Origin: Deltaproteobacteria bacterium
GTDB lineage: Bacteria; Desulfobacterota; JBBIRW01
Reading direction: 5' to 3'
Length of the DNA stretch: 64,000 nucleotides
NCBI GenBank assembly: GCA_037441565.1
Contig: JBBIRW010000007.1
Coordinates: forward strand, 43,297-107,296
Below the pieces are notes generated by a model. That model was not told the origin of the DNA. It did not search any database and saw only the letters and a list, made by a program, of their open reading frames with translations. The translations under genes and the position numbers were made by a program. Positions within the stretch are counted from its first letter, which is position 1, and every line of letters begins with the position of its first letter. Shown here piece by piece: positions 5,920 to 48,939 of the stretch.

Positions 5920-6783
5920 TTGAATGTCCTTCCTTTTTACATTATGATTTTTTTTGCTTCAATAGTTTTTTTCACTGAGAGGGAAAAGATGTATAGAATT
6001 CATGTCCACATCCCTTTTGATATGCTCACAGGATATATGGAAAACATATTGAAAATGAGAATCAATCTTGAAATCGCCTTTAACGCAAGATCCCTCGATA
6101 AGGTGAAAAAATGGGAATTCCAGAAGATCATCAGCACCTTTAATTATAAACCTTCGATCACCTTCCATGCGCCCTTTATGGACCTCTCGGCAGGTGCCCT
6201 TGATGAGAAAATAAGGAAGGTATCGGAAAAAAGAATCCTTCAGGTCCTGAACCTCTCAAAGGTTCTACATCCTGCACTCATAGTTGTCCACACCGGTTAT
6301 GAGAAATGGAGGTATGCGGGGCTTTATGATAAGTTCTTCAGGAGTAGTAAAAAAACATGGAAAAGGATTATCAGTGAGGCAGAAAAGTTAGATATCCCGA
6401 TTGCACTTGAAAATGTCTTTGAAGAGGATACCTCACTTATAAAAAATCTTATCCAGGAGATAGGTTCAAAAAAGATGGGGCATTGTTTTGATGTGGGGCA
6501 TTTCCATATATTCGGTAAGATTCCTATTGAAAAGTGGTTTGATGATCTCGGCGAATTTATAATGGAGGTTCATCTTCACGATAATAGGGGAAAATGGGAT
6601 GAACATCTCGCACCAGGAAGTGGAAATATTGATTTCAAGACCCTTTTCTCCCTCATCTCAAAACTCCCATCAAAACCTATCCTCACACTTGAGGCGCATT
6701 CAAGGGAGGATGTGGAAATAGGAATGGAGAAAATCAAGAGATTTATAGAGGCAATGGATCATAAGGGTGGATTTTCTATATAG
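5920..6783 (+). CDS. sugar phosphate isomerase/epimerase (xylose isomerase-like TIM barrel)
   Basis: 287 aa ORF; conserved His/Glu/Asp pattern (ALENVFEE, HCFDVGHFH, HLHDNRG). True start is probably the internal ATG near 5989 (MYRIHVHIP). Confidence 0.7.
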   Translation: MNVLPFYIMIFFASIVFFTEREKMYRIHVHIPFDMLTGYMENILKMRINLEIAFNARSLDKVKKWEFQKIISTFNYKPSITFHAPFMDLSAGALDEKIRKVSEKRILQVLNLSKVLHPALIVVHTGYEKWRYAGLYDKFFRSSKKTWKRIISEAEKLDIPIALENVFEEDTSLIKNLIQEIGSKKMGHCFDVGHFHIFGKIPIEKWFDDLGEFIMEVHLHDNRGKWDEHLAPGSGNIDFKTLFSLISKLPSKPILTLEAHSREDVEIGMEKIKRFIEAMDHKGGFSI

Positions 6784-8441
6784 TAAGATATGGACTTCAA
6801 TGCCTCCTTGAGTTCGCCGCCGCTGGAAAATCTTTCCTTCACATTCTTCCTGAGGCACTTCATTATGATATTGTCTAGCTCCTCTCTAATTGACGGGTCA
6901 ATGACCATGGGTCTCTCAGGCTCCTCTTCAAGGATTTTATCCATAAGGTTTTTTTCAACAGGATCATAAAATGGAAGTCTCCCTGTATGAATCTGATACA
7001 TGATAACCCCCAGTGCCCATATATCACTCCTCTTTTCACTTTTCCCCAGTATCTGTTCCGGTGCCATATATGGTCTTGTCCCTATAACGGTTTTGCTTAT
7101 CTCCTCATCCCGTAGCTCCTTTGCTGTTCCATAATCAAGTAACTTCAGTATGCCATCGTTCCTTATCAGTATATTCTCAGGCTTTATGTCCCTATGAACA
7201 ACGTTTCTGCTGTGGGCATGGGAAACAATATCCACAAGCTGACTGATATAAAACCTCTTTTCACCTTCACTCATTCCAATCTTCATTTTATCACTAAGTG
7301 TTATTCCATCGACAAACTCCTGAACGATGATTATCCTTTCATTGTGCTTCAATATATCCTTAACTGATACAGCATTTCTGTGTGGCTCAAGTTTCTTGCA
7401 TATCAATGCCTCCTTTAAAAATCTTCTATTGTATTTTTCGCTCCTTGGTATCTTCAGCACACAAAATTCATCCCTGTTCATATTCATGATATTCCTTGCC
7501 TTCCATATCTCCGAGAAAGTCCCATCACCAAGCTTCTCAATCTTTTCGTACCTATCAGCAATAAGTTCTGACATCCTTTTGATACATATAAAATTCCTCT
7601 CGATGGGAATGAGATTGCTCAGTATATTTAAAAGAAACCTCCTTACCCTTCCACCTTTTTCTTTTGATTCCACCCACATGTTGCTTTCGGAATCCAGGCC
7701 TATGTTTATACCCTCATAACCGATGATCTCGCCTTTCTCATCCTTAACAAGCTGACCCGAGATAAGAACCGTAATGATACTTCCGTCCTTTCTTTTGAAG
7801 TTGACTTTGAAGTCATTAACAAAACCGTTCTTCTCTATGAGATATTGGAAGAGTTTTCTGTCATCAGGATTCACATATATATCCTTTGGAATATTTACCT
7901 TCATCAATTCATTCTTACTTTCATATCCCAGCATACGTACAAGGGCATCATTGCATTCAATAAACCTTCCATCCCTGCTACTCAGAAAAACGCCTTCCCT
8001 TATGGACTCAAGGATAAGCCTGTATTTTCTCTCAAATTCAGATAATCTTTTCCTTTGAAGGGCGAGATTTGAGAGTATCCTTATCTTTGATAACAGTTCA
8101 TAAGGTTTCAATGGCTTTTTCAAATAATCGGAAGTTCCGTGCTGGATAATCTTTTCGATGGTCTCATCGGTTATGCCCTCATTTAAAAGCATGAGCATCG
8201 GGATCCGAGAAATGGGTGGAATTGATATCAACCTGAGATAAAGTTCATTCAGCATGTCCGTCTCTTTGGGAGAATCAATTACAAGCAGATCAACACCCCC
8301 TTTTTCCACCTCTTCGAAGACTTCATCCAGTATAGCTAAGACAGAAAGCTTATAGTCCTTGCCCTTCAGAACCTCCATAAATAGGGCTTCACAATCTCGA
8401 TCTTCATCCAGAAGCAATATTCTTACAAGCTCGCCGCTCAT
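6759..8441 (-). CDS. response-regulator receiver / PAS / Hanks-type Ser/Thr protein kinase fusion
   Basis: 560 aa; REC domain (LLLDED, DLLVID, YLKKP), PAS domain (GVFLSSRDGRFIECNDALVRMLGY), kinase domain with HRDIKPENIL catalytic loop, DYG and TRPYMAPE motifs. Confidence 0.8.
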   Translation of the reverse strand: MSGELVRILLLDEDRDCEALFMEVLKGKDYKLSVLAILDEVFEEVEKGGVDLLVIDSPKETDMLNELYLRLISIPPISRIPMLMLLNEGITDETIEKIIQHGTSDYLKKPLKPYELLSKIRILSNLALQRKRLSEFERKYRLILESIREGVFLSSRDGRFIECNDALVRMLGYESKNELMKVNIPKDIYVNPDDRKLFQYLIEKNGFVNDFKVNFKRKDGSIITVLISGQLVKDEKGEIIGYEGINIGLDSESNMWVESKEKGGRVRRFLLNILSNLIPIERNFICIKRMSELIADRYEKIEKLGDGTFSEIWKARNIMNMNRDEFCVLKIPRSEKYNRRFLKEALICKKLEPHRNAVSVKDILKHNERIIIVQEFVDGITLSDKMKIGMSEGEKRFYISQLVDIVSHAHSRNVVHRDIKPENILIRNDGILKLLDYGTAKELRDEEISKTVIGTRPYMAPEQILGKSEKRSDIWALGVIMYQIHTGRLPFYDPVEKNLMDKILEEEPERPMVIDPSIREELDNIIMKCLRKNVKERFSSGGELKEALKSISYYIENPPL

Positions 8442-8473
8442 CTTCCAATCCCCTCAAAATTAATTATATAATA

Positions 8474-23532: not shown

Positions 23533-24111
23533 CTACTTTAACCTTTCTTCAACAACATCCCAGTTTATATTTCTGAAAAATGCCTCAATGTAATCGGCCC
23601 TCTTTAATCCATAATCAATCATGAATGCATGCTCAAAGACATCCATTATGAGGATGGGATTACATCCTGCAGGATGAGAAACATCATGTTCGTTTATCCA
23701 GAAATTTATCAGCCTTCCATTTGCAGGATCCTGATAAAGGATCACCCAGCCAATGCCTCTCATTGTCCCGCATGATTTGAAATCTTTCTCCCACTGCTCA
23801 TAGCTTCCAAAATCCTCGGCAATCTTTCTTGCTATCCTGCTTTCCTTCTTTATTCCACCCTTGCCACCGAGATTTTCAAAGTAATATTCATGAAGCCTCA
23901 TCCCGTTAAACTCCCATCCCAGTCTCCTTTTTAGCTCCGCATATTCGGGAGTCCCTGCCTTTCCATCTCTCAACATACTGTTTAACGTATCGATTAATTT
24001 GTTTGTGTTTGTTACATAACCCTGATAAAGGGTGAAGTGATTTTTGAGCAGTGTTTCGCTGAATCCTTCAATACCTATAAGCTTGCTGTAATCTTTTGGA
24101 TTGTAGCTCAT
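23533..24111 (-). CDS. sod: superoxide dismutase, Fe/Mn family
   Basis: 192 aa; Fe/Mn-SOD fold motifs (HFTLYQGYV, GWVILYQD, DVFEHAFMIDY). Confidence 0.85.
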   Translation of the reverse strand: MSYNPKDYSKLIGIEGFSETLLKNHFTLYQGYVTNTNKLIDTLNSMLRDGKAGTPEYAELKRRLGWEFNGMRLHEYYFENLGGKGGIKKESRIARKIAEDFGSYEQWEKDFKSCGTMRGIGWVILYQDPANGRLINFWINEHDVSHPAGCNPILIMDVFEHAFMIDYGLKRADYIEAFFRNINWDVVEERLK

Positions 24112-24238
24112 AAGATCCTCCTTTTGATTCTTTGTTCTTTACTGAGCGATAGAAAATAAAAACTTAAGATAATTAATACCAATGGATCTCTCTAAATTCA
24201 ATACCTTCTCTTGAATTAATGAGTTTTAATGTAGGGGA

Positions 24239-24274
24239 AGGAGGGGTCCATATCTCTCTTAATGGATCCCTCCT
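24239..24274. repeat. inverted repeat, 13-bp arms with 10-nt loop
   Basis: AGGAGGGGTCCAT / ATGGATCCCTCCT (one G-U-compatible mismatch) lying 5-40 nt beyond the bacterioferritin-like stop and about 130 nt upstream of sod; no U-tract follows. Confidence 0.4.
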
Positions 24275-24279
24275 GCTGA

Positions 24280-24717
24280 TCATTGTTCTTCTGCGAAGGT
24301 CTTGATTTGAAGGATGGCGCTGAATTTATCATCATGCCCTTCTTCATCCATTATAATCTCTTCAAGAATCCTCCTCGTCACAGGGTCACCCGCTTCCTCT
24401 GCGAGCTTTAGATGTTCTTTGTACAGTTTTATTGCCATCCTTTCACCATCGATGTCATCTTTTATCATCTTTTTGAGATCACCACCAACTTTTATCTCCC
24501 CCGGTTTTGTAACGGGTGTTCCACCAAGATAGTTTATCCTCTCCGCGAGTTTCTCAGCATGTTTCATCTCGTCGATGGCAATCTTTCTAAACATCTCGGA
24601 AATTTCGGGGCTTTCCAAACCTTCTGCCATAACATGATGCCACATATATTGTGTTATAGCAGCAAGTTCAAGTGCGAGATCATCATTTAGTGCCTTTATA
24701 AGTTTTTCTTTTGACAT
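24280..24717 (-). CDS. bacterioferritin / ferritin-like diiron protein
   Basis: 145 aa from internal ATG at 24717 (MSKEKL...), which has an AAGGAGG site upstream; two ExxH diiron motifs (DEMKHAE, DEEGHDD). Confidence 0.75.
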   Translation of the reverse strand: MSKEKLIKALNDDLALELAAITQYMWHHVMAEGLESPEISEMFRKIAIDEMKHAEKLAERINYLGGTPVTKPGEIKVGGDLKKMIKDDIDGERMAIKLYKEHLKLAEEAGDPVTRRILEEIIMDEEGHDDKFSAILQIKTFAEEQ

Positions 24718-24835
24718 GGATACCTCCTTTCTTCCTGTATACAAATATATACTTCTGATAGAATACGCCACACATTATAGCAGGAGATATCCATATCATT
24801 CAATATCAATTTTTTATCTGCAACGAATCTCTCCC

Positions 24836-25399
24836 TCAGTGATGCTCACCAAGGTAGACTTCACTTAGATGATGTAAAAGCTTATGATATTCCTCATGTT
24901 TTCCTGGGCCAATCCTCTCCCTCTCGATCCTTTCAAAGTTCTCCAAAAGCTCCTTTTCCTTTTCTACTGAAATGCGCATCTCGCCCATAGGGTAAAGGAT
25001 GTTGTCTTCCTTGTAGATGTGATCCGTAAGAAGTGAAATATAGCCCCTTGCGTTTTTTACAAAATCTACGGAAGCCTTTTCATCACCAGTCCTGTATCTC
25101 GAAAAAGCATCATTCATACCCCTCAGATAACTCCGACCCATTTCATGTTCACTAAGCATAACACCGATTGGACCCCCTTCCTTTGGAATACCCAACTCCT
25201 CAAAAGCAGGGAATAGAAGGTCTTCCTCCTTCCCATGGTGACACCTATCGGCAAATGTTCTGATGAAATCGATAATCTTTTCGATATCATCGGGCTTTAC
25301 TCTCTCGTTTTTCTGAAGCATCTCACAAACCTTCTCCAGGACTTTTAGCATAAGCTTTATTGCCTTATGTTCCTCTTTAAGTTGTTCAGTTGGTTTCAT
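24836..25399 (-). CDS. hemerythrin-like (HHE cation-binding) domain protein
   Basis: 187 aa; His/Glu-rich hemerythrin-type pattern (HHGKEEDLLFP, LSEHEMG, HIYKEDNILYP). Confidence 0.75.
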   Translation of the reverse strand: MKPTEQLKEEHKAIKLMLKVLEKVCEMLQKNERVKPDDIEKIIDFIRTFADRCHHGKEEDLLFPAFEELGIPKEGGPIGVMLSEHEMGRSYLRGMNDAFSRYRTGDEKASVDFVKNARGYISLLTDHIYKEDNILYPMGEMRISVEKEKELLENFERIERERIGPGKHEEYHKLLHHLSEVYLGEHH

Positions 25400-25479
25400 G
25401 GTGATAACCTCCCATTCTGAAATTTCCTATATATTAAATCCATCACCGGCAAAAATCTATGAGCGAAATCATATTCTGA

Positions 25480-25653
25480 TTATATTTCGCATACAAATTC
25501 GCTCTTAGGTGCACCGCATATGGGACAGACCCAGTCTTCGGGTAGTTGATCAAATGGTGTCCCTTCCCCAATATTTGATTCCGGATCTCCCTTCTCAGGA
25601 TCATAAATATATCCACAGACTGTGCACCTGTATCTTAAAAATGTATCGATCAT
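25480..25653 (-). CDS. rub: rubredoxin
   Basis: 57-aa ORF below the track cut-off: [53 protein letters not shown]. Two CxxCG knuckles and conserved YIYDPE and [11 protein letters not shown] segments. Its ATG overlaps the upstream stop (ATGA). Confidence 0.85.
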
Positions 25654-26909
25654 CCTTTTACCTTCATGTTTTTTGGAAGTATTAATCTTATCGCCCTTTC
25701 ATAAAAAATATAATCCCATGCCCAGTTTATCAAAACTATAAGCCTGTTTCTGAATCCGATAAGGTTAAAAAGATGGACACTAAGCCATATTACCCATGCA
25801 GGGAAACCAGTAAATCCAAAACCTCTCAGGTGTGCAACAGCTTTATTACGACCTATTGTAACCATCGTTCCCTTATCTATATATCTGAAAGGAAGGGGAT
25901 CATCACCACGCAACTGACGGGCTATGTTTCTTCCTGCCCAATGTCCCTGCTGAATTGCAACAGGTGCAATCATAGGGAGAACTTTTCCATCTTCCTCCAG
26001 ATAAGCAAGGTCACCTATAACATAAATCCTTTGATCTTCCATCACCTGGAGTGTGGGAAGAACAGGAACCCTTCCACCTTTAATAGTTCTCAAACCTGAT
26101 TCCTCTGCTAATCTACTTCCACGAACACCTGCTGTCCATACAACGGTTCCTGTATCAATCCTCTTTCCTTCCTTTAACAAGATATGATCTTCCGCTATCT
26201 CAGTAACAATACTGTTCAATCTCACATCAACACCCATTGATTTAAGCCTATCAGCTGTATAAAGGGATAGTTTCTCAGGAATGCCAGGGAGAATAAAACC
26301 ACTAGCCTCAATAAGGATCAGTTTTACTTCACTTATATCAATGGTTGGAAAATCCTTTACAATAGGACCCCTTATAAGCTCTGCCAGCGCTCCTGCAAAC
26401 TCCACACCTGTTGGGCCACCTCCAACTATACAGAATGTAAGCATCCTTCCTCTCTTTCCACTATCCCTTTCATGAACTGCATGTTCAAAGCATGAGAGTA
26501 TATGATTCCTGAGGTAAATGGCATCATCCAATGTCTTTAAGGGAAAACTATATTCGGCTGCACCCTTCACATTAAAAAAATTTGATATACTTCCTGAGGC
26601 GATTATCAGGTAATCATAGCCAATAGTGAAGTCATCACCAACGACCATCCTTCTCCTTATGTCAATACCCTCTACCTCCCCCATTATAAACCTTACTGAT
26701 TGAAATTTTCTCAGGATACTCCTTACAGGATAGACAATATCCTCTGGCTCAAGCTCTGAGGCAGCAATTTGATATAGAAGCGGAAAAAAGGTATGATAAT
26801 TATTCCTGTCTATAAGAACTATCTCTCCATCTATCTTGCTCAGCGATTTCAGTGCCCACAGTCCACCAAAACCAGCACCTATTATAACAATCCTTGGGGC
26901 TTCAGGCAT
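25650..26909 (-). CDS. type II NADH dehydrogenase-family flavoprotein (NDH-2-like)
   Basis: 419 aa; two dinucleotide-binding motifs ([21 protein letters not shown]) and an amphipathic C-terminal anchor. Confidence 0.8.
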
Positions 26910-27426: not shown

Positions 27427-28236
27427 TTGGAGATGCGAATAGTATTTTTGCGAAGAATCTTTGCCTTCTTAGGAAAATATCTGCCCATAATAACTATTCT
27501 GTTAATCTCTTCCACATATCCGTTAAAGGCACATACAGATGCGATGGAAGAGAGGAAAGAGGTAATTATAGAGGATAGAACAGGTAAATTTATCCCTCTT
27601 GATCTGGATTTTACCGATGAGAATGGGAAGGTTGTTTCGATCAAGGAACTCTTTAAGAAGCCGGTGATACTTTCTCCTGTTTACTTCAGCTGTCCCAATG
27701 TTTGCAATCTCCTTCTTGAAGAGATTGCCCGTCTTATTGATAAGATGGAAGCAGAACCAGGAAGGGACTACTCCATAATAACATTTAGTTTTGATGAAAA
27801 TGATAAGCCGGAAAAGGCACTTGAAAAAAAGAGGATTTTTCAAAAGATCATCAAGAAAAAAATTCCTGATGATTCATGGAAATTCCTCACAGGAGATAGA
27901 GAATCAATTAAAAGACTCACCGATGCAATCGGGTTTAATTTCAAAAGAAAGGGCGATGAATTTATACATCCTGTTTCACTGGTTGTTCTTTCAAGTGACG
28001 GTAAGATTATCCGTTATGTTCCTGGAAAGGCACTCCTTCCATTCGATCTGAAAATGGCTATTGCGGAGGCATCTGAAGGAAGAACGGGGGCAACTATAAA
28101 TAAAGTGCTTCTTCTCTGCTACAGTTATGATCCCCAAGGCAGGAGATACGTGCTTAATATAACAAGGATTGGAGGTGTAATTATACTACTTTCACTTGCT
28201 GGATTCTCAATATTTCTTCTGAGAAACAGGAGTTAA
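27427..28236 (+). CDS. SCO1/SenC-family copper chaperone (thioredoxin-like, CxxxC)
   Basis: 269 aa; signal peptide, thioredoxin-like domain with CPNVC, conserved C-terminal YDPQGRRYV segment followed by a TM helix. Confidence 0.8.
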   Translation: MEMRIVFLRRIFAFLGKYLPIITILLISSTYPLKAHTDAMEERKEVIIEDRTGKFIPLDLDFTDENGKVVSIKELFKKPVILSPVYFSCPNVCNLLLEEIARLIDKMEAEPGRDYSIITFSFDENDKPEKALEKKRIFQKIIKKKIPDDSWKFLTGDRESIKRLTDAIGFNFKRKGDEFIHPVSLVVLSSDGKIIRYVPGKALLPFDLKMAIAEASEGRTGATINKVLLLCYSYDPQGRRYVLNITRIGGVIILLSLAGFSIFLLRNRS

Positions 28237-28238
28237 TT

Positions 28239-29858
28239 ATGACGCAGGGCTCTATTCTCCTGAAAACTCACACGATTAGCTTTCTTGAAGAAAAAGGGAG
28301 ATATAAAGGTATACTTTCCTGGATCATGTCAACGAACCATAAGAGGATAGGTCTACTCTACCTTCTCTCCATGCTTTCTTTCTTCATTATCGGTGTTATC
28401 CTCGGACTTCTTATGAGACTTGAGCTTATTGCGCCGGGAAGAACCATAATGGGTCCGCAGACGTATAATTCCATATTCACCCTTCATGGAGTTATAATGA
28501 TATTTTTATTTGTTATCCCTGGAATACCTGCTGCGTTCGGGAATTTCTTCCTTCCCATACACATAGGTGCAAGGGATGTATCATTCCCGAGAATAAATCT
28601 TCTGTCCTGGTACTTCTTCATAGGCGGAGCAACACTTGTTGTGATATCGCTTTTTACAGGTGGAGGGCCTATTGATACAGGATGGACGTTCTATGCTCCA
28701 TATAGCATAAGAACAGGAACAAATGTGTCCCTCGCTGTCCTGGGCGCTTTTTTAATCGGATTTTCCTCAATACTAACAGGGCTTAATTTTGTGACGACCA
28801 TACACAGATTGAGGGCACCTGGAATGGGGTGGTTCCGCATGCCACTTTTCGTATGGTCCCTTTATGCAACAGGCTGGGTCCAGCTTCTTGCAACACCTGT
28901 CGTTGGAATAACACTAATTCTTATCATATGTGAGAGATTTTTTGGTGTCGGTTTTTTCGATCCAGCAAAAGGGGGTGATCCTCTGTTGTTTCAGCATCTC
29001 TTCTGGATCTACTCACACCCTGCTGTTTACATAATGATCCTTCCTGCGATGGGTGTTATCTCAGAAATAATCCCTGTTTTCTCAAGGAAGAATATATTTG
29101 GATATAAGGCAATAGCATTCTCAAGTCTTTCCATAGCTCTCGTTGGATATCTTGTATGGGGACACCATATGTTCACAAGCGGTATGAGTGATACTGCAAA
29201 GTGGGTATTTTCCCTATTAACATTTCTCGTGGCAATACCAAGTGGAGTTAAAACATTCAACTGGGTTGCAACAATGTATGGAGGATCAATTGAAATTGCC
29301 CCTCCATTGCTATATGCGCTCTCGTTTATATTTGCATTTTCAATAGGCGGTTTAACAGGTCTTATAAATGGAGCAATTGCCACTGATATTCACATACATG
29401 ATACATATTTTGTTGTTGGTCATTTCCATTATACCATGTTTGGTGGAACTGCCTTTGCTTTTTTTGGTGCACTTCACTACTGGTTTCCTAAGATGTTTGG
29501 AAAGATGTATAGCATAAGACTTGCAAATATTGCCTGGCTCATCCTTTTTACAGGTTTTAATATTTTATACTTTCCCATGTTTATCCTTGGATGGGAGGGG
29601 ATGCCGAGGAGATATTATGACTATCTTCCAAGATTCCATATGCTTCATCTCATATCAACCATCGGCTCCTGGATCCTTGCAACTGGTCTTATCCTTATGT
29701 TTTACAATTTTCTACGTTCCCTGAAATATGGTGAAAGGGCAGAACATAACCCCTGGGGTGGAAGCACACTGGAATGGCAGATACAGTCCCCTCCACCCCC
29801 AGAGAACTTCGAGCATATACCTGCTGTCAGCGCAGGACCTTATGATTTCAAAAGGTGA
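28239..29858 (+). CDS. ctaD: cytochrome c oxidase subunit I (heme-copper oxidase, A-type)
   Basis: 539 aa; 12 TM; SHPAVYIMILP (His-Tyr region) and WGHHMF (CuB histidines). Confidence 0.9.
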   Translation: MTQGSILLKTHTISFLEEKGRYKGILSWIMSTNHKRIGLLYLLSMLSFFIIGVILGLLMRLELIAPGRTIMGPQTYNSIFTLHGVIMIFLFVIPGIPAAFGNFFLPIHIGARDVSFPRINLLSWYFFIGGATLVVISLFTGGGPIDTGWTFYAPYSIRTGTNVSLAVLGAFLIGFSSILTGLNFVTTIHRLRAPGMGWFRMPLFVWSLYATGWVQLLATPVVGITLILIICERFFGVGFFDPAKGGDPLLFQHLFWIYSHPAVYIMILPAMGVISEIIPVFSRKNIFGYKAIAFSSLSIALVGYLVWGHHMFTSGMSDTAKWVFSLLTFLVAIPSGVKTFNWVATMYGGSIEIAPPLLYALSFIFAFSIGGLTGLINGAIATDIHIHDTYFVVGHFHYTMFGGTAFAFFGALHYWFPKMFGKMYSIRLANIAWLILFTGFNILYFPMFILGWEGMPRRYYDYLPRFHMLHLISTIGSWILATGLILMFYNFLRSLKYGERAEHNPWGGSTLEWQIQSPPPPENFEHIPAVSAGPYDFKR

Positions 29859-30484
29859 TTTTCATGATTAGTATTACTTCTTTCTCTGTTGAAAAACACA
29901 CTGATTATACTGGTTCAAAGATCGGTATGTGGTTATTTCTATTCACAGAAATGCTTCTTTTTGGGGGTCTCTTTCTCATTTATTCCACATACAGGGCAAA
30001 GTATCCCATCTCCTTCCATGTTGCAGCAAAAGATCTTAACATACAGATAGGTACGCTAAATACAATACTTCTTCTTACAAGCAGTCTCACAATGGCTATA
30101 TCGATATTATCAATAAAAAATGGAAGTAGAAGAGGGTCTGCTTCCTTTCTCATGATTACTATCATTTTCGGACTTTTATTCCTTTTCAACAAATACTTTG
30201 AATGGGGAGAAAAGATTGCGCACGGTATCTATCCGGGATCAGAAGCACTCTCCGTTATAGATTCATCCATTGTCCTTTTTTACAATCTATACTTTGTTAT
30301 GACAGGGCTTCATGCCTTACATGTCCTTGCGGGGATCTTCGTGCTTTTCATAATGTTTGTTTTACTCCTTAAGAAAAATATAAACAGGCATGATTTTGTC
30401 AAACTTGAAAATACAGGGCTATACTGGCATTTTGTAGATATAATCTGGATATACCTCTTTCCCCTTTTTTATCTGATAACATGA
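29855..30484 (+). CDS. ctaE: cytochrome c oxidase subunit III
   Basis: 209 aa polytopic protein with subunit-III C-terminal motif (LYWHFVDIIWIYLF); 4-nt overlap with subunit I. Confidence 0.8.
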   Translation: MIFMISITSFSVEKHTDYTGSKIGMWLFLFTEMLLFGGLFLIYSTYRAKYPISFHVAAKDLNIQIGTLNTILLLTSSLTMAISILSIKNGSRRGSASFLMITIIFGLLFLFNKYFEWGEKIAHGIYPGSEALSVIDSSIVLFYNLYFVMTGLHALHVLAGIFVLFIMFVLLLKKNINRHDFVKLENTGLYWHFVDIIWIYLFPLFYLIT

Positions 30485-30774
30485 GGTTTGCTATGCAAAA
30501 CAAGAGAAATGAAGCAGGTTTTTTGACATATCTTTTTGTGTGGATATCTCTCATTGTTCTCACTGCATTTACAGTTACAGTCGCGGCTCTTAATCTCGGA
30601 AAAATTGCTGTTCTCACAGCGCTATCAATTGCATCATTCAAATCGTTGATGGTTCTTAACTTCTTTATGCATCTGAAATATGAGGATCGTCTATTCCATT
30701 TCATGCTCCTTCTCTCTGTTATTACCCTTTCGATAATTATAGGATTCACATTTTTTGACATCTCTTTCAGATAG
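30481..30774 (+). CDS. cytochrome c oxidase subunit IV (bacterial small subunit)
   Basis: 97 aa, three TM helices; position between subunits III and II; 4-nt overlap. Confidence 0.6.
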   Translation: MRFAMQNKRNEAGFLTYLFVWISLIVLTAFTVTVAALNLGKIAVLTALSIASFKSLMVLNFFMHLKYEDRLFHFMLLLSVITLSIIIGFTFFDISFR

Positions 30775-30782
30775 GGTTAATT

Positions 30783-31391
30783 ATGGAAAATTTTGCAGAA
30801 AGAGTAGATAACACATTCTTCTACATAGCTGGTATCTCAGTTTTTCTTCTCTTTTCCATCACAGTTTTCATGATCTACTGTCTTATCAGGTTCAACAGAA
30901 GGAGAAATCCGATGCCCGCTGATATCTCGGAAAATCTCTACCTCGAGATAGCATGGACAATTATCCCGATAATCCTTGTACTGTCCATGTTCTATTATGG
31001 ATGGACAGGATACAGGGTTCTGGGTAAAATACCCGAAGGATCGATGGATGTAAATGTTACGGCACGCATGTGGTCATGGACATTCAGGTACGAAAATGGA
31101 AAAGAAAGCGACCAACTTTATGTGCCAGCTGGCAAGCCAGTAAAATTAACGATCACATCAATGGATGTAATCCACTCCCTATATATACCCGCCCTAAGAA
31201 TAAAACAGGATGCAGTCCCCGGTATGAAAACGCACCTCTGGTTTAAAGCAGACATAAAGGGAGAATACGATATATTATGTGCTGAGTACTGTGGTCTCAG
31301 GCACTCCTATATGCTATCAAAGCTTATTGTTATGCCTGAAGAGGATTTCGTAAAATGGTATGATGGCAGGGATATTAAAAAATTAAAATAG
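30783..31391 (+). CDS. ctaC: cytochrome c oxidase subunit II (CuA, no fused cytochrome c)
   Basis: 202 aa; two TM helices plus cupredoxin domain with CuA ligands (VIHSLYIP, CAEYCGLRHSYM). Confidence 0.85.
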   Translation: MENFAERVDNTFFYIAGISVFLLFSITVFMIYCLIRFNRRRNPMPADISENLYLEIAWTIIPIILVLSMFYYGWTGYRVLGKIPEGSMDVNVTARMWSWTFRYENGKESDQLYVPAGKPVKLTITSMDVIHSLYIPALRIKQDAVPGMKTHLWFKADIKGEYDILCAEYCGLRHSYMLSKLIVMPEEDFVKWYDGRDIKKLK

Positions 31392-31394
31392 GGA

Positions 31395-32705
31395 TTGAAT
31401 TTCGATCTGCTTTTAGAATATAAAATCCTAATGATGCAGGATTATCTCGCTGTTATCAAAGCTGAACATATAGAAACGCTTCGATATATTTCGACAGTTG
31501 CATTTGTTATCTTCTACCCCTTCATATCCATTATTCTCGGATATTTGATCCTCTCCTTCCTTTTCCTTCTCAGGGGGAGGGGAACCAATCACTTCTCATC
31601 CGAACTAACTTCATCCATAATACATACCATTACAAAGAGCAAGGGTCTTCTGTTTCTTGCAGGACTGCTTCCACCACTTACTGCATCCCTCGTTTTTATT
31701 GAAACAGGTCTTATGGAGAATAAGCATCTCGTTAATCTCTCATTACTCTCCCATATCCTTCTCTTCATTTCATTCATGTTTCTTTATCTTTATCGATCAA
31801 CAATAAACTTTATTCGCACAAAACCCGCAATCACACTCCTGTCATCTATCTTTTCAATCCTGACACTGCTTTTTTCCCTTTATATCCTCTCGTCTGTTCT
31901 TTCATCAGTATCAAACAGAGAAAAGGCTAATCTATTTTTGAATGCCATTGATCCGCTTATATCATGGAATGCCGTTGTAAGATACCTGAGGATTATTGTT
32001 CTTGCGCTTTCATTTGCTTTTTCGACCTTTATAGTTTTTTTTAAATATTTTTATAAAAGTAAAACAGTGGATGATCCTTCCCTCAGAAATGCCATAATCT
32101 ATTCCTCACTCGTATTGCTTATCCTTATACCTCCGCTTTCCCTATGGTATATCTATACCCTCCCTGAGCCTTCCCTATCACCTTTTATATTTCTGTTATC
32201 AATAATCTTAACGATTGCATCCTCTATCATTATATGGCTCCTTTACAGCTGCCTTGATGGAATAAAATCGAAATACAAATATAGCATACTCATCCTTTTC
32301 ATATTGCAGTTTATGTTTATTTCAGGTATGGAATATATCGAAAGAGAAACATCACATAGAGAAAATACCATGTTATTATTATCAAAAGCACAGGTTGTTA
32401 AAGAAGGGATAAGGACTGAAAAGAAAAAAGTTGAGATGGATGAGAAGGCAACCCTTGAAAAGGGGGAGAAGGTTTTCAAAACGGTTTGCTCAGCCTGTCA
32501 CAGCTTCACTCAAAGGGTTGTTGGTCCTCCTTTAAATGCTGTTATTCCATCTTACAGGAATAAGGTTGATGAGCTAAAAAACTTCATAAAGAATCCTGTG
32601 AAAAAAGATCCCTCCTATCCTCCAATGCCGAATCTGGGACTTCCAGATGATGAAATAGAGGCTGTCTCATTATATCTCCTGAAGGAGATAGGAGAGAAAA
32701 AGTAG
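31395..32705 (+). CDS. polytopic membrane protein with C-terminal monoheme cytochrome c domain
   Basis: 436 aa; about 8-10 TM helices, then a soluble C-terminus with CSACH heme-binding motif and PPMP (likely Met ligand). Start uncertain. Confidence 0.6.
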   Translation: MNFDLLLEYKILMMQDYLAVIKAEHIETLRYISTVAFVIFYPFISIILGYLILSFLFLLRGRGTNHFSSELTSSIIHTITKSKGLLFLAGLLPPLTASLVFIETGLMENKHLVNLSLLSHILLFISFMFLYLYRSTINFIRTKPAITLLSSIFSILTLLFSLYILSSVLSSVSNREKANLFLNAIDPLISWNAVVRYLRIIVLALSFAFSTFIVFFKYFYKSKTVDDPSLRNAIIYSSLVLLILIPPLSLWYIYTLPEPSLSPFIFLLSIILTIASSIIIWLLYSCLDGIKSKYKYSILILFILQFMFISGMEYIERETSHRENTMLLLSKAQVVKEGIRTEKKKVEMDEKATLEKGEKVFKTVCSACHSFTQRVVGPPLNAVIPSYRNKVDELKNFIKNPVKKDPSYPPMPNLGLPDDEIEAVSLYLLKEIGEKK

Positions 32706-32714
32706 GAGAGGAAT

Positions 32715-33227
32715 GTGAGAAGATCCCTTGTTCTTGCAACCATTTCATGCTATGCATCGATCTTCTCCATCATATTTTTATCAATAGGCTATTATAACTA
32801 TTACCATGATGGGCCACCCATTCAGCCCATCGCCTTCAGCCATCGTATACATGTTGCAAAGGTTGGCCTTCCCTGCAACTTTTGCCATGTTTATGCTGAT
32901 AAATCAAAAAATGCCGGAATCCCTCATATCCAGAAATGCATGGATTGTCACAGGGCTGTTGCTGTAGAAAAGCCTGAAATAAAGAAACTTACTTCATACT
33001 GGGAACAGCGTAAACCCATAGAATGGATCAAGATTTACAAACTTCCCGATCATGTTTATTTTTCACATAAGAGACATATAAAGAAGGGGGTAGAATGTTC
33101 ACAGTGCCATGGTGAAGTACAGGTCATGGACAGGGTAAGAAGGGTAAGAACTTTAAAGATGGGGTGGTGTGTGAGATGTCACAGGGTAAATGATGCACCA
33201 ACTGATTGTCTCACATGCCATAAATGA
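32715..33227 (+). CDS. actA: Alternative Complex III subunit ActA (pentaheme cytochrome c)
   Basis: 170 aa; N-terminal TM helix and five CxxCH motifs (CNFCH, CMDCH, CSQCH, CVRCH, CLTCH). Confidence 0.8.
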   Translation: MRRSLVLATISCYASIFSIIFLSIGYYNYYHDGPPIQPIAFSHRIHVAKVGLPCNFCHVYADKSKNAGIPHIQKCMDCHRAVAVEKPEIKKLTSYWEQRKPIEWIKIYKLPDHVYFSHKRHIKKGVECSQCHGEVQVMDRVRRVRTLKMGWCVRCHRVNDAPTDCLTCHK

Positions 33228-33239
33228 ACGGAGTGTTAT

Positions 33240-36056
33240 ATGAATAGAAGAAACTTCATGAAGTTCCTTGGCTTCATTACAGGATCAACATTTCTTTCAT
33301 CATGTGGCATTGACAAAGGTTTAAGAAAAATCATATCTTATGCCATACCACCAGAAAAGGAGATCATACCTGGTGAGCCATTATTTTTTAACACAACCTG
33401 CACAGAATGCCCTGCCCTCTGCGGGATTCAGGTTAAGGCATATGAAAAGATCTTTGATACGGAAAGGGGTATCTACCCTGTAAAGCTTGAAGGTATACCG
33501 GATCATCCCATCAATTATGGCACACTATGTATAAGGGGTCAGGCATCCATAACACGACTCTACAATCCCCATCGTATAAAAGATCCCTTAATTAAGGAAA
33601 GGGATGGAGTTTTCAGATCGATAAGCTGGGATCAAGCATTCCAGACCATAATTTCAGAAATCGAAAAACATAAAGCCGAGAAAAGATATAACTTCTTCAT
33701 TTCATCAAGAACAACGGGTTCCCTCTCATTACTTATTGATGAATTCTGTCACGAATTCAATATAAAGAGACTTCCGGAATTTGAAATATATAATTATTCT
33801 GCAATCAGAAAAGCAAACTCATTCCTTTTCGGAAAATATTCAATACCTCATTACAACATAAAGGACGCTGATTTTCTTTTAACAATGGGTGCTGATATTT
33901 TTGAGACTTTTATCAGTCCTGTTTCACACGCAGTTCAATTCTCTATTGCACGGAAAAACAATAATCTAAAGTGGTTTCATGTTGAACCACATCTTTCATT
34001 AACAGGAATATGTTCTGATAAAAGATTTACAATCAATCCTGGAACAGAAATATATCTTCTTATTTATATCCTGACTTCTATTCAAAAAAGAAAAATAAGC
34101 AGCAACATTCCTGCTTCAGTTGGTCAATTAATTCCCTCTCTGCCTTTGGATATTCTGAAAGAAAAAACAGGGCTAAAAGAGGAAGAAATCCTTCTCATAA
34201 GGGATGCTTATCTTAATTCAAAAAGACCCCTCATTATAACAGGTGGCGTCTCAACCAGAAGTGGCAGTGGATTCGAAGTGGCTGTTCTCTCAGGATTAAT
34301 CAATTGGGCTTCCGGATCTATCGGTAGCCTTGTTGATTTCAGCAGAGAAGAGAACTACTTAAGGGTAGGAACAATAGAGGAATTTGTTAATTTCCTTAAA
34401 ACAATTGATGAGAATAACACAGGTTTGCTCTTTCTCCTTAAAACAGATCCTGTTTCCATCTTTCCTCAGCATCTTGGAGTTAAAGAAAAACTCATCAGGG
34501 CGAGATTTAAGGTCTCCCTTTCGGACTCATTCAATGAGACAACAAAAATTTGTGATCTTATCCTCCCCCTTTCTCACTCTCTTGAATCGTGGGGAGATGC
34601 AAATCCAAGAAGAGGACTTGTTAATCTCATCCAGCCTGCAACAAAAACAATTTTCAATACAAAATCGCATGGTGACATAATTATCGAGATTATGAAAAGA
34701 AAGGGAAAAGTTGTTTCTGAAGATTTTAAATCCTTTGTTATGAGTAATTATCAGAAAAGATATGGAAAAGATTCATTAAATATGTTTATTGAAAAAGGCT
34801 TTCATGAAGAAAACCCCTCCCCTGTAAGGGTATCATTCAACGAAGAGAATGCGCAACTGTTCTTGAGGAAGCTCAAATATCCTGAAGCTATGAAAACTCC
34901 CCTTCTTATTCTTTCTCCTTCGTTGAGGTTTTTTGATGGAAGATCTTTTGATCTTGAACTCTTAAAAGAAATCCCGGATCCTTTAAGCACGATATCCTAT
35001 GGGAGCTGGATCTCCCTTTCAGAGGAGACAGCAAAAAAATTGAACATCTCAGAAAGGGATGAGCTCGAAATTACTAAGGACCGATGGTCTATAAGAGTTC
35101 CTGCAAAGATTCAGAAAGGTATAGGAAAGGATATATTTATCGTCCAGATCGGAGGACCGATAAATTATAGTGGCATGACCGATCCCAGAAGCGGTGAAAT
35201 CCTCTCATACATTGAAGGTATAAATATAAGAAAAACGGGAAAGAATGTTTCCATACCAATCCTTTCAGGCTCAATGTCACAGGAAGGAAGGGGTATAATA
35301 CCTTATCCCATACATAGAACTGAAAATAATAAAAAACACAAAGAGAGTTTATATCCTGAACATAAACATGAAAATTACCGATGGGCTATGACTATAGATC
35401 TCGATCTCTGTATAGGATGCTCGGCATGTGTTGCTGCATGTTATATTGAGAACAATGTTCCTATTGTAGGGATTGATGAACATCTCAAAGGAAGAGAGAT
35501 GTCCTGGATCAGGGTCGAGCCATTTTATGATGAAAAGGATGGAATAAGATTCCTGCTCATGCTATGCCAGCAATGTGATTATGCTCCGTGTGAACCTGTC
35601 TGCCCTGTTTATGCAACATATCATAATCCTGAAGGAATAAATGCACAGGTCTATAACAGATGTGTTGGAACAAGGTACTGCTCAAATAACTGTCCGTATA
35701 AGGTCAGAAGATTTAACTGGTATCCTCATGAATGGGAATTCCCAAGGGACAGGATGTTAAATCCTGAGGTATCAGTAAGACAGGCAGGCGTAATGGAAAA
35801 GTGCACATTCTGCATACAACGTATAAGAAGAGCACATGATATCGCAAAGGATGAAGGCAGGTCCATAAGGGATGGTGAAGTAATGCCTGCATGTGCCCAG
35901 ACATGCCCCACCCGTGCAATTACATTTGGTAATATTCTTGATAAGAATTCATCTGTATATAAGCTTTCAAAGTCCGACCGTTCATATCGCATCTTTGAGC
36001 AACTCGGAACAGAACCATCGATATATTATCTTGGAAAGAGGAGAGGAGATGAATAA
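33240..36056 (+). CDS. actB: Alternative Complex III subunit ActB (molybdopterin-oxidoreductase-like + FeS domains)
   Basis: 938 aa; twin-arginine signal (RRNFMKF), large molybdopterin-like domain, C-terminal 4Fe-4S ferredoxin domains (CIGCSACVAAC, CQQCDYAPCEPVCP). Confidence 0.85.
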   Translation: MNRRNFMKFLGFITGSTFLSSCGIDKGLRKIISYAIPPEKEIIPGEPLFFNTTCTECPALCGIQVKAYEKIFDTERGIYPVKLEGIPDHPINYGTLCIRGQASITRLYNPHRIKDPLIKERDGVFRSISWDQAFQTIISEIEKHKAEKRYNFFISSRTTGSLSLLIDEFCHEFNIKRLPEFEIYNYSAIRKANSFLFGKYSIPHYNIKDADFLLTMGADIFETFISPVSHAVQFSIARKNNNLKWFHVEPHLSLTGICSDKRFTINPGTEIYLLIYILTSIQKRKISSNIPASVGQLIPSLPLDILKEKTGLKEEEILLIRDAYLNSKRPLIITGGVSTRSGSGFEVAVLSGLINWASGSIGSLVDFSREENYLRVGTIEEFVNFLKTIDENNTGLLFLLKTDPVSIFPQHLGVKEKLIRARFKVSLSDSFNETTKICDLILPLSHSLESWGDANPRRGLVNLIQPATKTIFNTKSHGDIIIEIMKRKGKVVSEDFKSFVMSNYQKRYGKDSLNMFIEKGFHEENPSPVRVSFNEENAQLFLRKLKYPEAMKTPLLILSPSLRFFDGRSFDLELLKEIPDPLSTISYGSWISLSEETAKKLNISERDELEITKDRWSIRVPAKIQKGIGKDIFIVQIGGPINYSGMTDPRSGEILSYIEGINIRKTGKNVSIPILSGSMSQEGRGIIPYPIHRTENNKKHKESLYPEHKHENYRWAMTIDLDLCIGCSACVAACYIENNVPIVGIDEHLKGREMSWIRVEPFYDEKDGIRFLLMLCQQCDYAPCEPVCPVYATYHNPEGINAQVYNRCVGTRYCSNNCPYKVRRFNWYPHEWEFPRDRMLNPEVSVRQAGVMEKCTFCIQRIRRAHDIAKDEGRSIRDGEVMPACAQTCPTRAITFGNILDKNSSVYKLSKSDRSYRIFEQLGTEPSIYYLGKRRGDE

Positions 36057-37362
36057 GGCGATTTCCAAAGCCATTGAGTTTCGTTACCGGATTGAAAAGG
36101 ATGTTCTCGCTGCAATGAAGAAACCCCATATCCAGTACTGGATCTTCCTTTTTATCTCAGTCATCTTGTTTGTAACTGGCATGTCCCTCTGGTACTACCA
36201 GATAAAAACAGGGATGGGTGTCTCCGGTAAAACGCATCCTGTCGGATGGTACATGTATATAACAAATTTTGTATTCTGGGTTGGAATCGCCCATTCAGGA
36301 ACACTTATATCAGCTGTTCTTTTTCTATTCCGGGCAGGATTCAGGAGCAGTTTCAACAGATCTGCAGAAGCAATGACCGTCTTTGCCATTATGACTGCAG
36401 GGCTCTTCCCCATAATACATCTTGGAAGACCATGGCTTTTCTACTGGTTGCTTCCATACCCGAATGAGAGGCTACTCTGGGTTAACTTCAGATCACCGCT
36501 TATATGGGATGTCTTCGCTGTTGGGACATATTTTACGGTAAGTCTTATCTTCTTTTATGTTGGTATGATTCCCGATCTTGCCATTGCAAGGAGATATGCA
36601 ACAGGATGGAAGAGGCGCCTGTACTCCTTCCTTTCACTCGGATGGCAGGGAACACCGGATCAATGGAGGCACTATAACAGACTATATATGTTTCTTGCAT
36701 CATTTGCAACTCCGCTTGTTGTTTCAGTCCACTCTGTTGTTTCATGGGATTTCGCTATGAGCATTATCCCAGGATGGCATACAACCATATTTGCCCCATA
36801 TTTTGTTGCAGGTGCTATATTTTCTGGAACAGCGATGGTAATAACGCTTGTTGTTCCAATGAGAAAGTTTTTTTCCCTTGAAAAATATATAACTTTAGAT
36901 CACTTTGATAGCATCGCTAAAATATTACTTCTTACATCTCTCATAGTGAGCTATTCATATATCGTGGAATTCTCCATGGCATTTTATGGTGGAAATATAT
37001 TCGAAATGGAAGTATTCAGGTACAGGGCATTTGGTGATTTCTGGATATTCTTCGCCATAATGATTATATGCAACTCCATTATTCCCCTCTTTCTATTCAT
37101 AAGAAAGCTAAGAAGAAATATAAAATTTCTTTTCATATCATCCCTTTTTGTTAATGTGGGTATGTGGATGGAAAGATTCGTAATCATAGTTACTTCCCTT
37201 TCCAGAGACTTTGATCCTTACGCATGGGGACTTCCATCATTCAGCACTGTTGCTATAGGAATCACGCTTGGCAGTTTCGGAATGTTTTTCATGCTTTTTC
37301 TTATATTTGTAAAGGTCCTTCCAATCCTTTCCATTACAGAATTAAAAGAGGTTCACGAATGA
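36049..37362 (+). CDS. actC: Alternative Complex III subunit ActC (NrfD/PsrC-like membrane subunit)
   Basis: Polytopic NrfD-like protein; start set at internal ATG 36049 (MNKAISKA), 8-nt overlap with actB; the track ORF begins at 35893 inside actB. Confidence 0.8.
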   Translation: MNKAISKAIEFRYRIEKDVLAAMKKPHIQYWIFLFISVILFVTGMSLWYYQIKTGMGVSGKTHPVGWYMYITNFVFWVGIAHSGTLISAVLFLFRAGFRSSFNRSAEAMTVFAIMTAGLFPIIHLGRPWLFYWLLPYPNERLLWVNFRSPLIWDVFAVGTYFTVSLIFFYVGMIPDLAIARRYATGWKRRLYSFLSLGWQGTPDQWRHYNRLYMFLASFATPLVVSVHSVVSWDFAMSIIPGWHTTIFAPYFVAGAIFSGTAMVITLVVPMRKFFSLEKYITLDHFDSIAKILLLTSLIVSYSYIVEFSMAFYGGNIFEMEVFRYRAFGDFWIFFAIMIICNSIIPLFLFIRKLRRNIKFLFISSLFVNVGMWMERFVIIVTSLSRDFDPYAWGLPSFSTVAIGITLGSFGMFFMLFLIFVKVLPILSITELKEVHE

Positions 37363-37814
37363 AAAAGGAATATCTGTTTGAAGACAAACACGAATTTGTC
37401 GAAAAATTGAAAGATCTTTTAAAAAAGGGGGTGCCTGTTGATCGAATGCAAATATACCTCCCTTTCCCTGTCGAAGAAGTAGAAGAGATTCTTGGAAGAC
37501 CGGTTAGTAAACTGAATTTCATTACCCTTCTCGGTGCAATCACTGGAACTATTACGGGCTTCGGATTCACAGCTTATACAGTTTTAAGCTGGCCTCTTAT
37601 AACGGGAGGAAAGCCACTGATATCCATCCCTGCATTTGTTATTATAGCATTTGAATTGACAATTCTTTTTGGATCGATCACATCGTTTCTCGGATTCCTT
37701 TCACTCTCACGCCTCCCTGATATTAGAAGGATTCTGAATCCCATGGAATTTGACAACAGATTTGCAATAGTGATAGATGATGGAGAAGATGATGGAAAAA
37801 GGGATGAGGATTAA
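37359..37814 (+). CDS. actD: Alternative Complex III subunit ActD-like small membrane protein
   Basis: About 151 aa from internal ATG 37359 (MKKEYLFEDK), ATGA overlap with actC; one or two TM helices; position matches ActD. Confidence 0.6.
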   Translation: MKKEYLFEDKHEFVEKLKDLLKKGVPVDRMQIYLPFPVEEVEEILGRPVSKLNFITLLGAITGTITGFGFTAYTVLSWPLITGGKPLISIPAFVIIAFELTILFGSITSFLGFLSLSRLPDIRRILNPMEFDNRFAIVIDDGEDDGKRDED

Positions 37815-47134: not shown

Positions 47135-47150
47135 ATAAAATCACCTCCAG

Positions 47151-48926: not shown

Positions 48927-48939
48927 TTTTTCCTCCTCA

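Follow-up and report, generated by a model that had tools for sequence, protein, structure and literature searches.

The DNA analyzed here, referred to as the window, is a 64,000-nucleotide (nt) stretch of contig JBBIRW010000007.1 (positions 43,297 to 107,296, forward strand; assembly GCA_037441565.1) from a Deltaproteobacteria bacterium. It carries a gene for a 560-residue protein in which a receiver-like domain, a PAS domain, and a Hanks-type Ser/Thr protein kinase are joined in one polypeptide. An earlier interpretation of the letters alone (the sequence-only reading) had placed an open reading frame (ORF) here and had pointed out the motifs DED, DLLVID, HRDIKPENIL, DYG, and APE, together with a conserved Lys. 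The ORF was present as described, and all of these motifs were recovered. It starts with ATG, a few bases downstream of the Shine-Dalgarno-like motif GAGGGG. The deduced protein was identical to another member of the P0001 sequence cluster and differed from P0001 itself (GCA_037446715.1) at a single residue (L35 versus S35; codon 35 at window positions 8337-8339), so that the window derives from a sibling assembly or strain of GCA_037446715.1.

We assigned domains by profile searches with Pfam and NCBIfam and read motif positions from the translation and codons (Table 1). A structural model was built with AlphaFold2 on a 113-sequence alignment, with a mean predicted local distance difference test (pLDDT) score of 83 and a predicted template modeling (pTM) score of 0.65. 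The domain search bore out the proposed receiver-PAS-kinase architecture, with kinase and PAS matches above their cut-offs and a receiver match that was full-length but sub-threshold. Judging from its sequence, the gene product is apparently a soluble, cytoplasmic Hanks-type kinase with N-terminal receiver-fold and PAS modules. Each of the three domains is ordinary by itself, and the protein is not a new kind of system; its relatives carry only the database names "protein kinase" or "PAS domain S-box protein."

Table 1. Features of the kinase gene and its product, with coordinates in the window
Feature	Residues	Window position	Strand	Basis or conservation
Complete ORF: receiver-like domain, PAS domain, disordered linker, Hanks-type kinase	560 aa	6759..8441	minus	
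Receiver-fold (pseudo-receiver) domain	6-122	8076..8426	minus	Pfam Response_reg, PDB receivers, AlphaFold2
Acidic pair D12-E13 (DD1, DD2), motif LLLDEDRD (D12, E13, D14)	12-13	8403..8408	minus	Aligns to DD of 3t6k, MtrA, and CpxR; directly after β1
D56 (codon GAT), phospho-acceptor position, motif VDLLVID	56	8274..8276	minus	Aligns to acceptor Asp of 3t6k, MtrA, and CpxR; end of β3
L86 (codon TTA) at the conserved Thr/Ser position, followed by N87 at T+1	86	8184..8186	minus	Aligns to Thr of 3t6k ("LMLTAQG"); end of β4
K109-P110 (conserved Lys, K+1 Pro), motif DYLKKP; Y106 aromatic at K-3	109-110	8112..8117	minus	Aligns to "KP" of 3t6k, MtrA, and CpxR; directly after β5
Long α5/signaling helix from receiver fold to PAS domain	113-146	8004..8105	minus	AlphaFold2: one unbroken 34-residue helix
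PAS domain	139-244	7710..8027	minus	Pfam PAS, PAS_9, TIGR00229
Low-confidence, probably flexible linker	245-290	7572..7709	minus	AlphaFold2 pLDDT <50 over 244-288; family mean pairwise identity 32%
Hanks-type Ser/Thr protein kinase domain	291-550	6792..7571	minus	Pfam Pkinase and Foldseek
K330, ATP-anchoring Lys of β3 ("VAIK" position)	330	7452..7454	minus	Invariant in 113/113 relatives
Catalytic loop H416-R417-D418-I-K420-P-E-N423	416-423	7173..7196	minus	H, R, D, K, P, and N invariant in 113/113
D436-Y-G, Mg-binding "DFG" motif	436-438	7128..7136	minus	D436 invariant; Tyr 89/113, Phe 24/113
Activation-loop S449-K-T451, probable autophosphorylation sites	449-451	7089..7097	minus	T451 invariant, S449 at least 90% conserved in the family

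The N-terminal domain matched the Pfam Response_reg profile (PF00072) with residues 8-121 and over the whole profile (1-111 of 111; E = 3.1e-05), but the score of 24.5 bits was below the gathering score of 30.2. Among PDB receivers, phmmer matched 3t6k at 6e-07 and MtrA and CpxR at an E value of about 1e-05. AlphaFold2 predicted a (βα)5 fold (β1, 6-11; β2, 30-35; β3, 52-56; β4, 82-86; β5, 105-108) with pLDDT of about 82-92, in which D12/E13, D56, and K109 are located at the C-terminal ends of β1, β3, and β5. The sequence-only reading had called this receiver intact-looking, and the acidic pair, the acceptor Asp, and the Lys are indeed all kept and found on alignment; it had not noticed, however, that the Thr/Ser position is occupied by Leu86. 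Of the supporting receiver features, only the aromatic Y106 at K-3 fits, with E60 instead of Pro at D+4, L64 instead of Gly at D+8, and N87 instead of a small residue at T+1. In functional receivers, the T position is Thr or Ser in 100%, T+1 is Ala or Gly in 74%, and Pro at D+4 and Gly at D+8 are typical, according to a 2025 review from the Bourret laboratory (PMC12632262), which classes as a pseudo-receiver (PsR) every receiver in which at least one residue of the active-site quintet (DD, D, T, and K) is missing. Because Leu86 replaces the obligatory Thr/Ser, the N-terminal domain as sequenced is a pseudo-receiver by this definition. It is not an aspartate-less receiver (ALR), as D56 is kept. 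Its active-site loops are acidic (DSPKETD between β3 and α3, NEGITDE between β4 and α4), and acidic residues are likewise over-represented in these two loops of pseudo-receivers (PMC12632262).

The kinase domain gave a strong Pfam Pkinase match (PF00069, residues 298-539; E = 9.1e-51; 173.2 bits versus a cut-off of 31.7). The NCBIfam PknB/Stk1-type model also matched the kinase part (E = 2.7e-54), at 185 bits versus an equivalog cut-off of 450. A bilobal kinase fold was predicted for residues 290-550, mostly with pLDDT >90, and the top Foldseek matches of this model were to the kinase domain of Mycobacterium tuberculosis PknB (template modeling score 0.86, 28% identity, E = 2.6e-21). K330, E344, H416-R417-D418, K420, N423, D436, and P461-E462 were invariant in all 113 aligned relatives, HRDIKPENIL occupies residues 416-425, and the Gly-rich loop G305-x-G307-x-x-S310 and the APE motif (A460-P-E462) are present. 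Among the kinase catalytic positions, only the third Gly-loop position varies across these relatives. No catalytic residue is substituted in the window protein, and the kinase therefore appears to be catalytically competent. T451 is located 11 residues ahead of the APE Glu, as is Thr197 of PKA, and the spacing of S449 is that of PknB Thr173. The spacing of T451 and the Arg of HRD suggest an RD-class kinase that is activated through activation-loop phosphorylation.

The PAS domain matched three profiles above their cut-offs: PF00989 at residues 139-242 (E = 3.4e-13; 50 bits versus 22.6), PF13426 (PAS_9; E = 4.2e-13; 49.9 bits versus 27), and the sensory box model TIGR00229 (52.2 bits versus 22.9). 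In the AlphaFold2 model, residues 147-244 adopt a PAS fold composed of an antiparallel sheet and flanking helices. No solved PAS domain matched the window PAS domain by sequence at E ≤ 1e-3, and a LOV-type Cys motif was not seen in the window sequence.

The distribution of the architecture was assessed with a word-indexed search, which listed at least 120 matches, nearly all of 550-580 aa and 37-48% identical over 84-99% of the query. One relative outside the window's own cluster, P0002, was 78% identical. The receiver-like-PAS-kinase architecture recurs in more than 110 sequence clusters (about 560 aa), mostly from metagenome-assembled genomes of Thermodesulfobacteriota and Anaeromyxobacteraceae, and clustering at 50% leaves about seven representatives of the family. 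Among the GTDB species-representative matches listed, of which the best reached 43%, full-length members came from metagenome-assembled genomes labeled Desulfobacterales, Syntrophobacterales/Syntrophobacteria, Desulfobaccales, Thermodesulfobacteriota, "Deltaproteobacteria," and Anaeromyxobacteraceae. The sequence-only reading had called the architecture rare; it is rare only among characterized proteins and is widespread in sequence data. Our literature search found no paper on a bacterial receiver-PAS-Hanks kinase or on its family. The response-regulator censuses of Galperin reportedly list rare receiver-protein-kinase fusions.

A sister family without the PAS domain (about 440-450 aa; loci L036-L066) has a degenerate receiver-like domain followed immediately by a kinase domain that is 43-51% identical to that of the window protein. 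Members are known from Syntrophobacteraceae and from the cultured organisms Desulfoferrobacter suflitae (DRH4, L037) and Desulfacinum infernum (Desulfacinum loci L056/L061), and these cultured organisms are possible entry points for experiments. The P0002 cluster also includes P0124 (MEM7828607.1), a 244-aa partial sequence on a 2.9-kb contig labeled "Candidatus Aenigmatarchaeota archaeon." Because all other evidence is bacterial, this archaeal label is most likely a binning error.

We then compared the receiver active site across the family. In the 113-sequence alignment, the acceptor column contained Ala in 35, Asn in 23, Asp in 22, Gly in 13, and Glu in 9 sequences, so that the acceptor Asp was absent in 91 of the 113 relatives (about 80%). 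The T column contained mainly Leu (56) and Ser (34), with Trp in 10 and Thr in only 5; the K column contained Lys in 54 and Pro in 29. To these 113 sequences, the GTDB members and the 50% representatives were added, giving 148 sequences that were clustered on PAS and kinase identity into eight clades, a grouping that is not a rooted phylogeny. The canonical quintet DD1-DD2-D-T-K was found in none of the 148 relatives in these eight clades. In the same residue order, the clade signatures were DSALK, DTGLK, and ASELK (59 sequences); DPNSP, EPNSP, and HRDSP (45 sequences); GPLLA-like (17 sequences, Desulfobaccales); DHAWA (13 sequences, including Anaeromyxobacteraceae); DTNLK, EGFIW, and DSAVW in small clades; and DEDLK in the window's clade (4 sequences, from the P0001 and P0002 clusters). 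Given that no canonical quintet occurs and that about 80% of the relatives lack the acceptor Asp, the conserved function of the family cannot depend on Asp phosphorylation. These alignments indicate that canonical His-to-Asp phosphotransfer is not the mechanism of the family, and it is probably not that of the window protein either.

What the family receivers share lies on the α4-β5-α5 face, where G102, A103, and R119 were conserved at 100% and L99 at 97%, followed by D105 and L123. The family receivers scored 44-60 bits against the PhoB receiver, and Pfam Response_reg results for ten clade representatives ranged from no match to 65.7 bits.

Within the window's clade, the receiver has evolved faster than the rest of the protein. 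Identity between the window protein and P0002 was 56% in the receiver, 93% in the PAS domain, and 85% in the kinase domain, and the corresponding nonsynonymous divergence (dN) was 0.29, 0.035, and 0.082, that is, about 3.5 to 8 times higher in the receiver; the PAS domain was the most conserved domain of the protein. Only dN is usable here, since synonymous sites were saturated (proportion of synonymous differences [pS] 0.52-0.79; synonymous divergence [dS] of the receiver not computable). The receiver of this clade was only 17-22% identical to those of the other clades, the most diverged of the eight. The ratio of receiver identity to PAS-plus-kinase identity between this clade and each of the others was 0.35-0.49, and these were the seven lowest values of the 28 clade pairs. 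At the otherwise family-invariant A103 and R119 and at L99 (97%), this clade has Thr, Lys, and Ile, respectively. The active-site loops also differ between the window protein and P0002 (SPKETD versus SYADEE between β3 and α3, and Asn versus Pro at T+1 between β4 and α4). A recent swap, in which the receiver would have come from a canonical regulator, was considered and was not supported: the domain scored 19.6-32.7 bits against canonical receivers and up to 30 against those of the family. The window's clade also has Leu at the T position in common with the largest clades.

On balance, and with modest confidence, we favor the reading that the window protein is a PAS-sensing Hanks-type kinase whose receiver-fold module serves phosphorylation-independent dimerization and/or autoinhibition, without His-Asp phosphotransfer. 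The α4-β5-α5 face forms the active dimer in OmpR/PhoB regulators. Here, the protein would be a soluble dimer held together through the receiver α4-β5-α5 face and helix 113-146, and the PAS domain, its most conserved part, would be the sensor of a cytoplasmic cue. The module composed of the receiver fold and the helix would set the relative position or the accessibility of the two kinase domains, and its geometry would thereby control trans-autophosphorylation at S449/T451. The activated kinase might then phosphorylate unlinked substrates. Known pseudo-receivers act by constitutive or regulated dimerization, by ligand binding, or by autoinhibiting an attached kinase, as in ShkA and CikA (PMC12632262).

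Several observations weigh against this reading. We infer both the dimerization and the PAS sensing. Of the eight clades, only that of the window (DEDLK) has DD1, DD2, and the Lys as well as the acceptor Asp. The pocket is kept although this receiver is the most diverged overall, which hints at selection on the pocket, and the blocks around its residues (DEDRDCE, VDL-VIDS, and DYLKKPLKPYELLSKIRILS) are identical in P0001 and P0002. The missing adjacent histidine kinase is weak evidence because orphan response regulators with distant kinases are common. Leu86 may itself be chemically compatible with Asp phosphorylation, because CheY T87I, with a bulky aliphatic residue at T, is still phosphorylatable, although it is signaling-dead and autodephosphorylates more slowly (PMC3774744).

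The sequence-only reading had proposed that a two-component phosphorelay input is coupled to Ser/Thr phosphorylation output in this protein. The architecture and the intact kinase on which this idea was based hold, but the relay itself is weakened by L86, N87, E60, and L64, by the lack of any canonical quintet in the family, by the variable loops, and by the missing linked histidine kinase. In a form restricted to the window's clade, D56 would be phosphorylated by an orphan histidine kinase, by a histidine phosphotransfer (Hpt) protein encoded elsewhere, or by acetyl phosphate, and this would alter dimerization or release autoinhibition; we consider such a relay unlikely. D12, E13, D56, K109, P110, and Y106 all align to catalytic positions of solved receivers, and the four sequences of the clade all have them despite strong divergence elsewhere in the domain. 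Only two independent lineages are involved, however, so that retention of all four pocket residues is not statistically significant (at a domain identity of 56%, about 0.56^4, roughly 0.1), and the conserved blocks are strand cores, which are conserved in any receiver fold. With two lineages and strand-core blocks, a working phospho-site remains a live minority hypothesis. A precedent is the fungal Rim15, in which the Asp is kept in some lineages and replaced in others (PMC8510515). Thr or Ser is found in all functional receivers (PMC12632262) and Leu in the window protein; T+1 is Asn here and Pro in P0002, though a small residue is needed there for access to the Asp. The β3-α3 loop has neither the D+4 Pro nor the D+8 Gly, its sequence is not the same in the window protein and P0002, and the Pfam receiver score is sub-threshold. 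Moreover, every sister clade manages without the acceptor Asp or without the metal-binding or Lys residues, and neither the window nor the syntenic locus of P0002 shows a linked kinase. Any such coupling would be non-canonical, since the Y-T switch lacks its Thr. A broader proposal, which we regard as speculative and rather doubtful, is that the window's clade preserves an ancestral, still phosphorylatable receiver-PAS-Hanks kinase, whereas the sister clades converted the same domain to a phosphorylation-independent module. With Leu in place of the switch Thr, the phosphorylated form would then signal by a non-canonical route. If true, the protein would be a one-polypeptide bridge from His-Asp signaling to Ser/Thr phosphorylation, and the family would be a natural series of stepwise conversion of a receiver to a pseudo-receiver under the same output.

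An improbable alternative is a pseudo-receiver that gates the kinase by binding a ligand or partner: its acidic pocket with the Lys would bind a divalent metal or a small molecule; another surface would bind a quinone, a partner protein, or a nucleotide second messenger; or the domain would be phosphorylated on Ser/Thr by the attached kinase. The pseudo-receiver of ShkA binds c-di-GMP and those of CikA and KaiA bind quinones, and the pseudo-receivers of ShkA and CikA inhibit autophosphorylation of their own kinases (PMC12632262). The loops DSPKETD and NEGITDE match the acidic-loop enrichment described above. However, no ligand-binding motif was identified, the active-site loops differ between P0001 and P0002, and the gene neighborhoods of the window, P0002, P0005, and P0109 offer no hint of a ligand or partner. 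This alternative also overlaps with the dimerization/autoinhibition reading that we favor, and sequence cannot separate the two. Very improbable is that the N-terminal domain has no function and is a remnant in decay, or that the whole gene is non-functional here. The high dN of the receiver relative to the kinase and PAS domains and its sub-threshold Pfam score would fit such decay. Against it, the reading frame is unbroken, a relative with 78% identity has it in synteny, AlphaFold2 is confident of the receiver fold (pLDDT 82-92), an N-terminal domain of about 120 aa is kept in all eight clades and in the PAS-less sister family, residues of α4-β5-α5 are invariant family-wide, and a receiver dN of 0.29 is far below the saturated synonymous divergence.

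We compared the window protein with characterized systems. It resembles M. tuberculosis PknB in its kinase fold, in having all catalytic motifs, and as an RD kinase with a conserved activation-loop Ser/Thr, but it has neither a transmembrane segment nor the extracellular PASTA sensor of PknB and instead has the cytoplasmic N-terminal receiver-fold and PAS domains. The best sequence matches of the N-terminal domain were OmpR/PhoB-type receivers (PhoB, MtrA, and CpxR), with which it shares the α4-β5-α5 motif GAxDYLxKP...L..R; unlike those regulators, the protein has no DNA-binding output and no Thr in the active site, and it has Thr, Lys, and Ile at positions A103, R119, and L99. With PsR and ALR domains (PMC12632262; Maule et al., PMC4395418), it shares a receiver fold without T, a T+1 residue that is not small, the loss of the D+4 Pro and D+8 Gly, and acidity of both loops, and about 80% of its relatives also lack the Asp. 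It differs from ALRs in keeping the Asp and from PsR/ALR domains in general in its attached output, a Hanks-type kinase; our literature search found no such case of a bacterial pseudo-receiver. In Caulobacter ShkA and Synechococcus CikA, a pseudo-receiver in the same polypeptide autoinhibits the kinase and a ligand relieves this inhibition (PMC12632262, PMC7010744). By analogy, autoinhibition of the ShkA/CikA type is a plausible working model for the window protein, although ShkA and CikA are two-component histidine kinases, whereas the window kinase is of the Hanks type and no ligand is predicted for it.

Fungal Rim15, a PAS kinase of the Greatwall family, combines the same three domain types in one polypeptide (PMC8510515). 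In Basidiomycota and Mucoromycota its receiver has Asp at the acceptor position, whereas Ascomycota have Ala, Gly, or Glu there, and the role of its receiver is unstudied (PMC8510515). The bacterial family likewise has lost the acceptor Asp in some lineages and kept it in others. Rim15, however, is eukaryotic and much larger, belongs to another kinase subfamily, and has the order PAS ... kinase ... receiver rather than receiver-PAS-kinase; the resemblance reflects convergence rather than homology.

In bacteria, Hanks-type kinases and two-component systems are commonly regarded as distinct signaling systems, and most known links between them are kinases that phosphorylate response regulators in trans. 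The present family is a sizeable, uncharacterized one in sulfate-reducing, syntrophic, and myxobacterial lineages, in which a Ser/Thr kinase has a receiver fold as an integral domain. It is a bacterial counterpart to Rim15, whose receiver is equally unexplained. It also provides a test case for the control of an attached enzyme by a pseudo-receiver, which the 2025 review called "a mystery" (PMC12632262). In the window's clade, the family has a member with an almost intact pocket, which could be informative on whether Asp phosphorylation was the ancestral input.

The genes within ±10 kb of the kinase gene encode a ferredoxin, an aldehyde:ferredoxin oxidoreductase, a pyridine-nucleotide disulfide oxidoreductase, an ADP-forming acyl-CoA synthetase, a radical-SAM protein, endonuclease III, two AP_endonuc_2/TIM-barrel proteins, a HAD hydrolase, a glutamate synthase, and a mechanosensitive channel. 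Products of ORFs farther away include RtcB/RtcA, transporters, glycosyl-related enzymes, and proteins of respiration and redox metabolism. The best named matches of RtcB were Nitrospirota metagenome-assembled genomes (76-77%), with Acidobacteriota close behind (74-75%), which allows a tentative taxonomic placement at most. We scanned the ORFs of at least 150 aa in the 64-kb window, save three that were judged to be overlapping shadow ORFs. In agreement with the sequence-only reading, which had seen no adjacent histidine kinase, none was found within ±10 kb or among the scanned ORFs, and the same search detected no other gene for an Hpt, receiver, FHA, or PP2C protein. The locus of P0002 is syntenic with the window. 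A conserved neighborhood was considered as a clue to partners or substrates and was rejected, the neighbors of P0005 and P0109 being unrelated to those in the window; the contexts of P0002, P0005, and P0109 contained no gene for a histidine kinase, FHA, or PP2C protein. Because the neighborhood is not conserved and no partner genes are linked, the kinase gene is regarded as a stand-alone unit.

At its 3' end, the kinase gene shares 25 nt (6759-6783) with a convergent gene of the AP_endonuc_2 family. At the other end, 32 nt (8442-8473) separate its start from the longest-ORF start of the divergent endonuclease III gene, or 41 nt by the public annotation. With the starts so close, the promoters of the kinase and endonuclease III genes must lie inside the neighboring coding sequence.

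Farther along the window, the product of one ORF (40735-42048, minus strand) has an archease domain at its C terminus, together with CobW_C and a CobW/HypB/UreG-type GTPase domain. This ORF is located directly downstream of RtcB (42109-43611, minus strand) and near the divergent RNA 3'-phosphate cyclase RtcA (43604-44692, plus strand). Archease is a known cofactor of RtcB, and its fusion to a metallochaperone-like GTPase looks unusual. In another fusion (38825-40708, minus strand), an Nramp-type metal transporter carries a C-terminal universal stress protein (Usp) domain. The regions 27427-38811 (plus strand) and 44689-49683 (minus strand) together encode two separate heme-copper oxidase sets (COX1/COX2/COX3, SCO1/SenC, and UbiA-type prenyltransferase) and an alternative-complex-III-like cluster composed of a multiheme cytochrome c7-like protein, a 938-aa molybdopterin/4Fe-4S ActB-like protein, an NrfD/ActC-like protein, and ActD. 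This large aerobic respiratory kit adjoins ferredoxin-dependent enzymes of the anaerobe type (AFOR and POR). An oxidative-stress cluster (23533-26909, minus strand) encodes an Fe/Mn superoxide dismutase, a ferritin/rubrerythrin-like protein, a hemerythrin-domain protein, and an NDH-2-type oxidoreductase.

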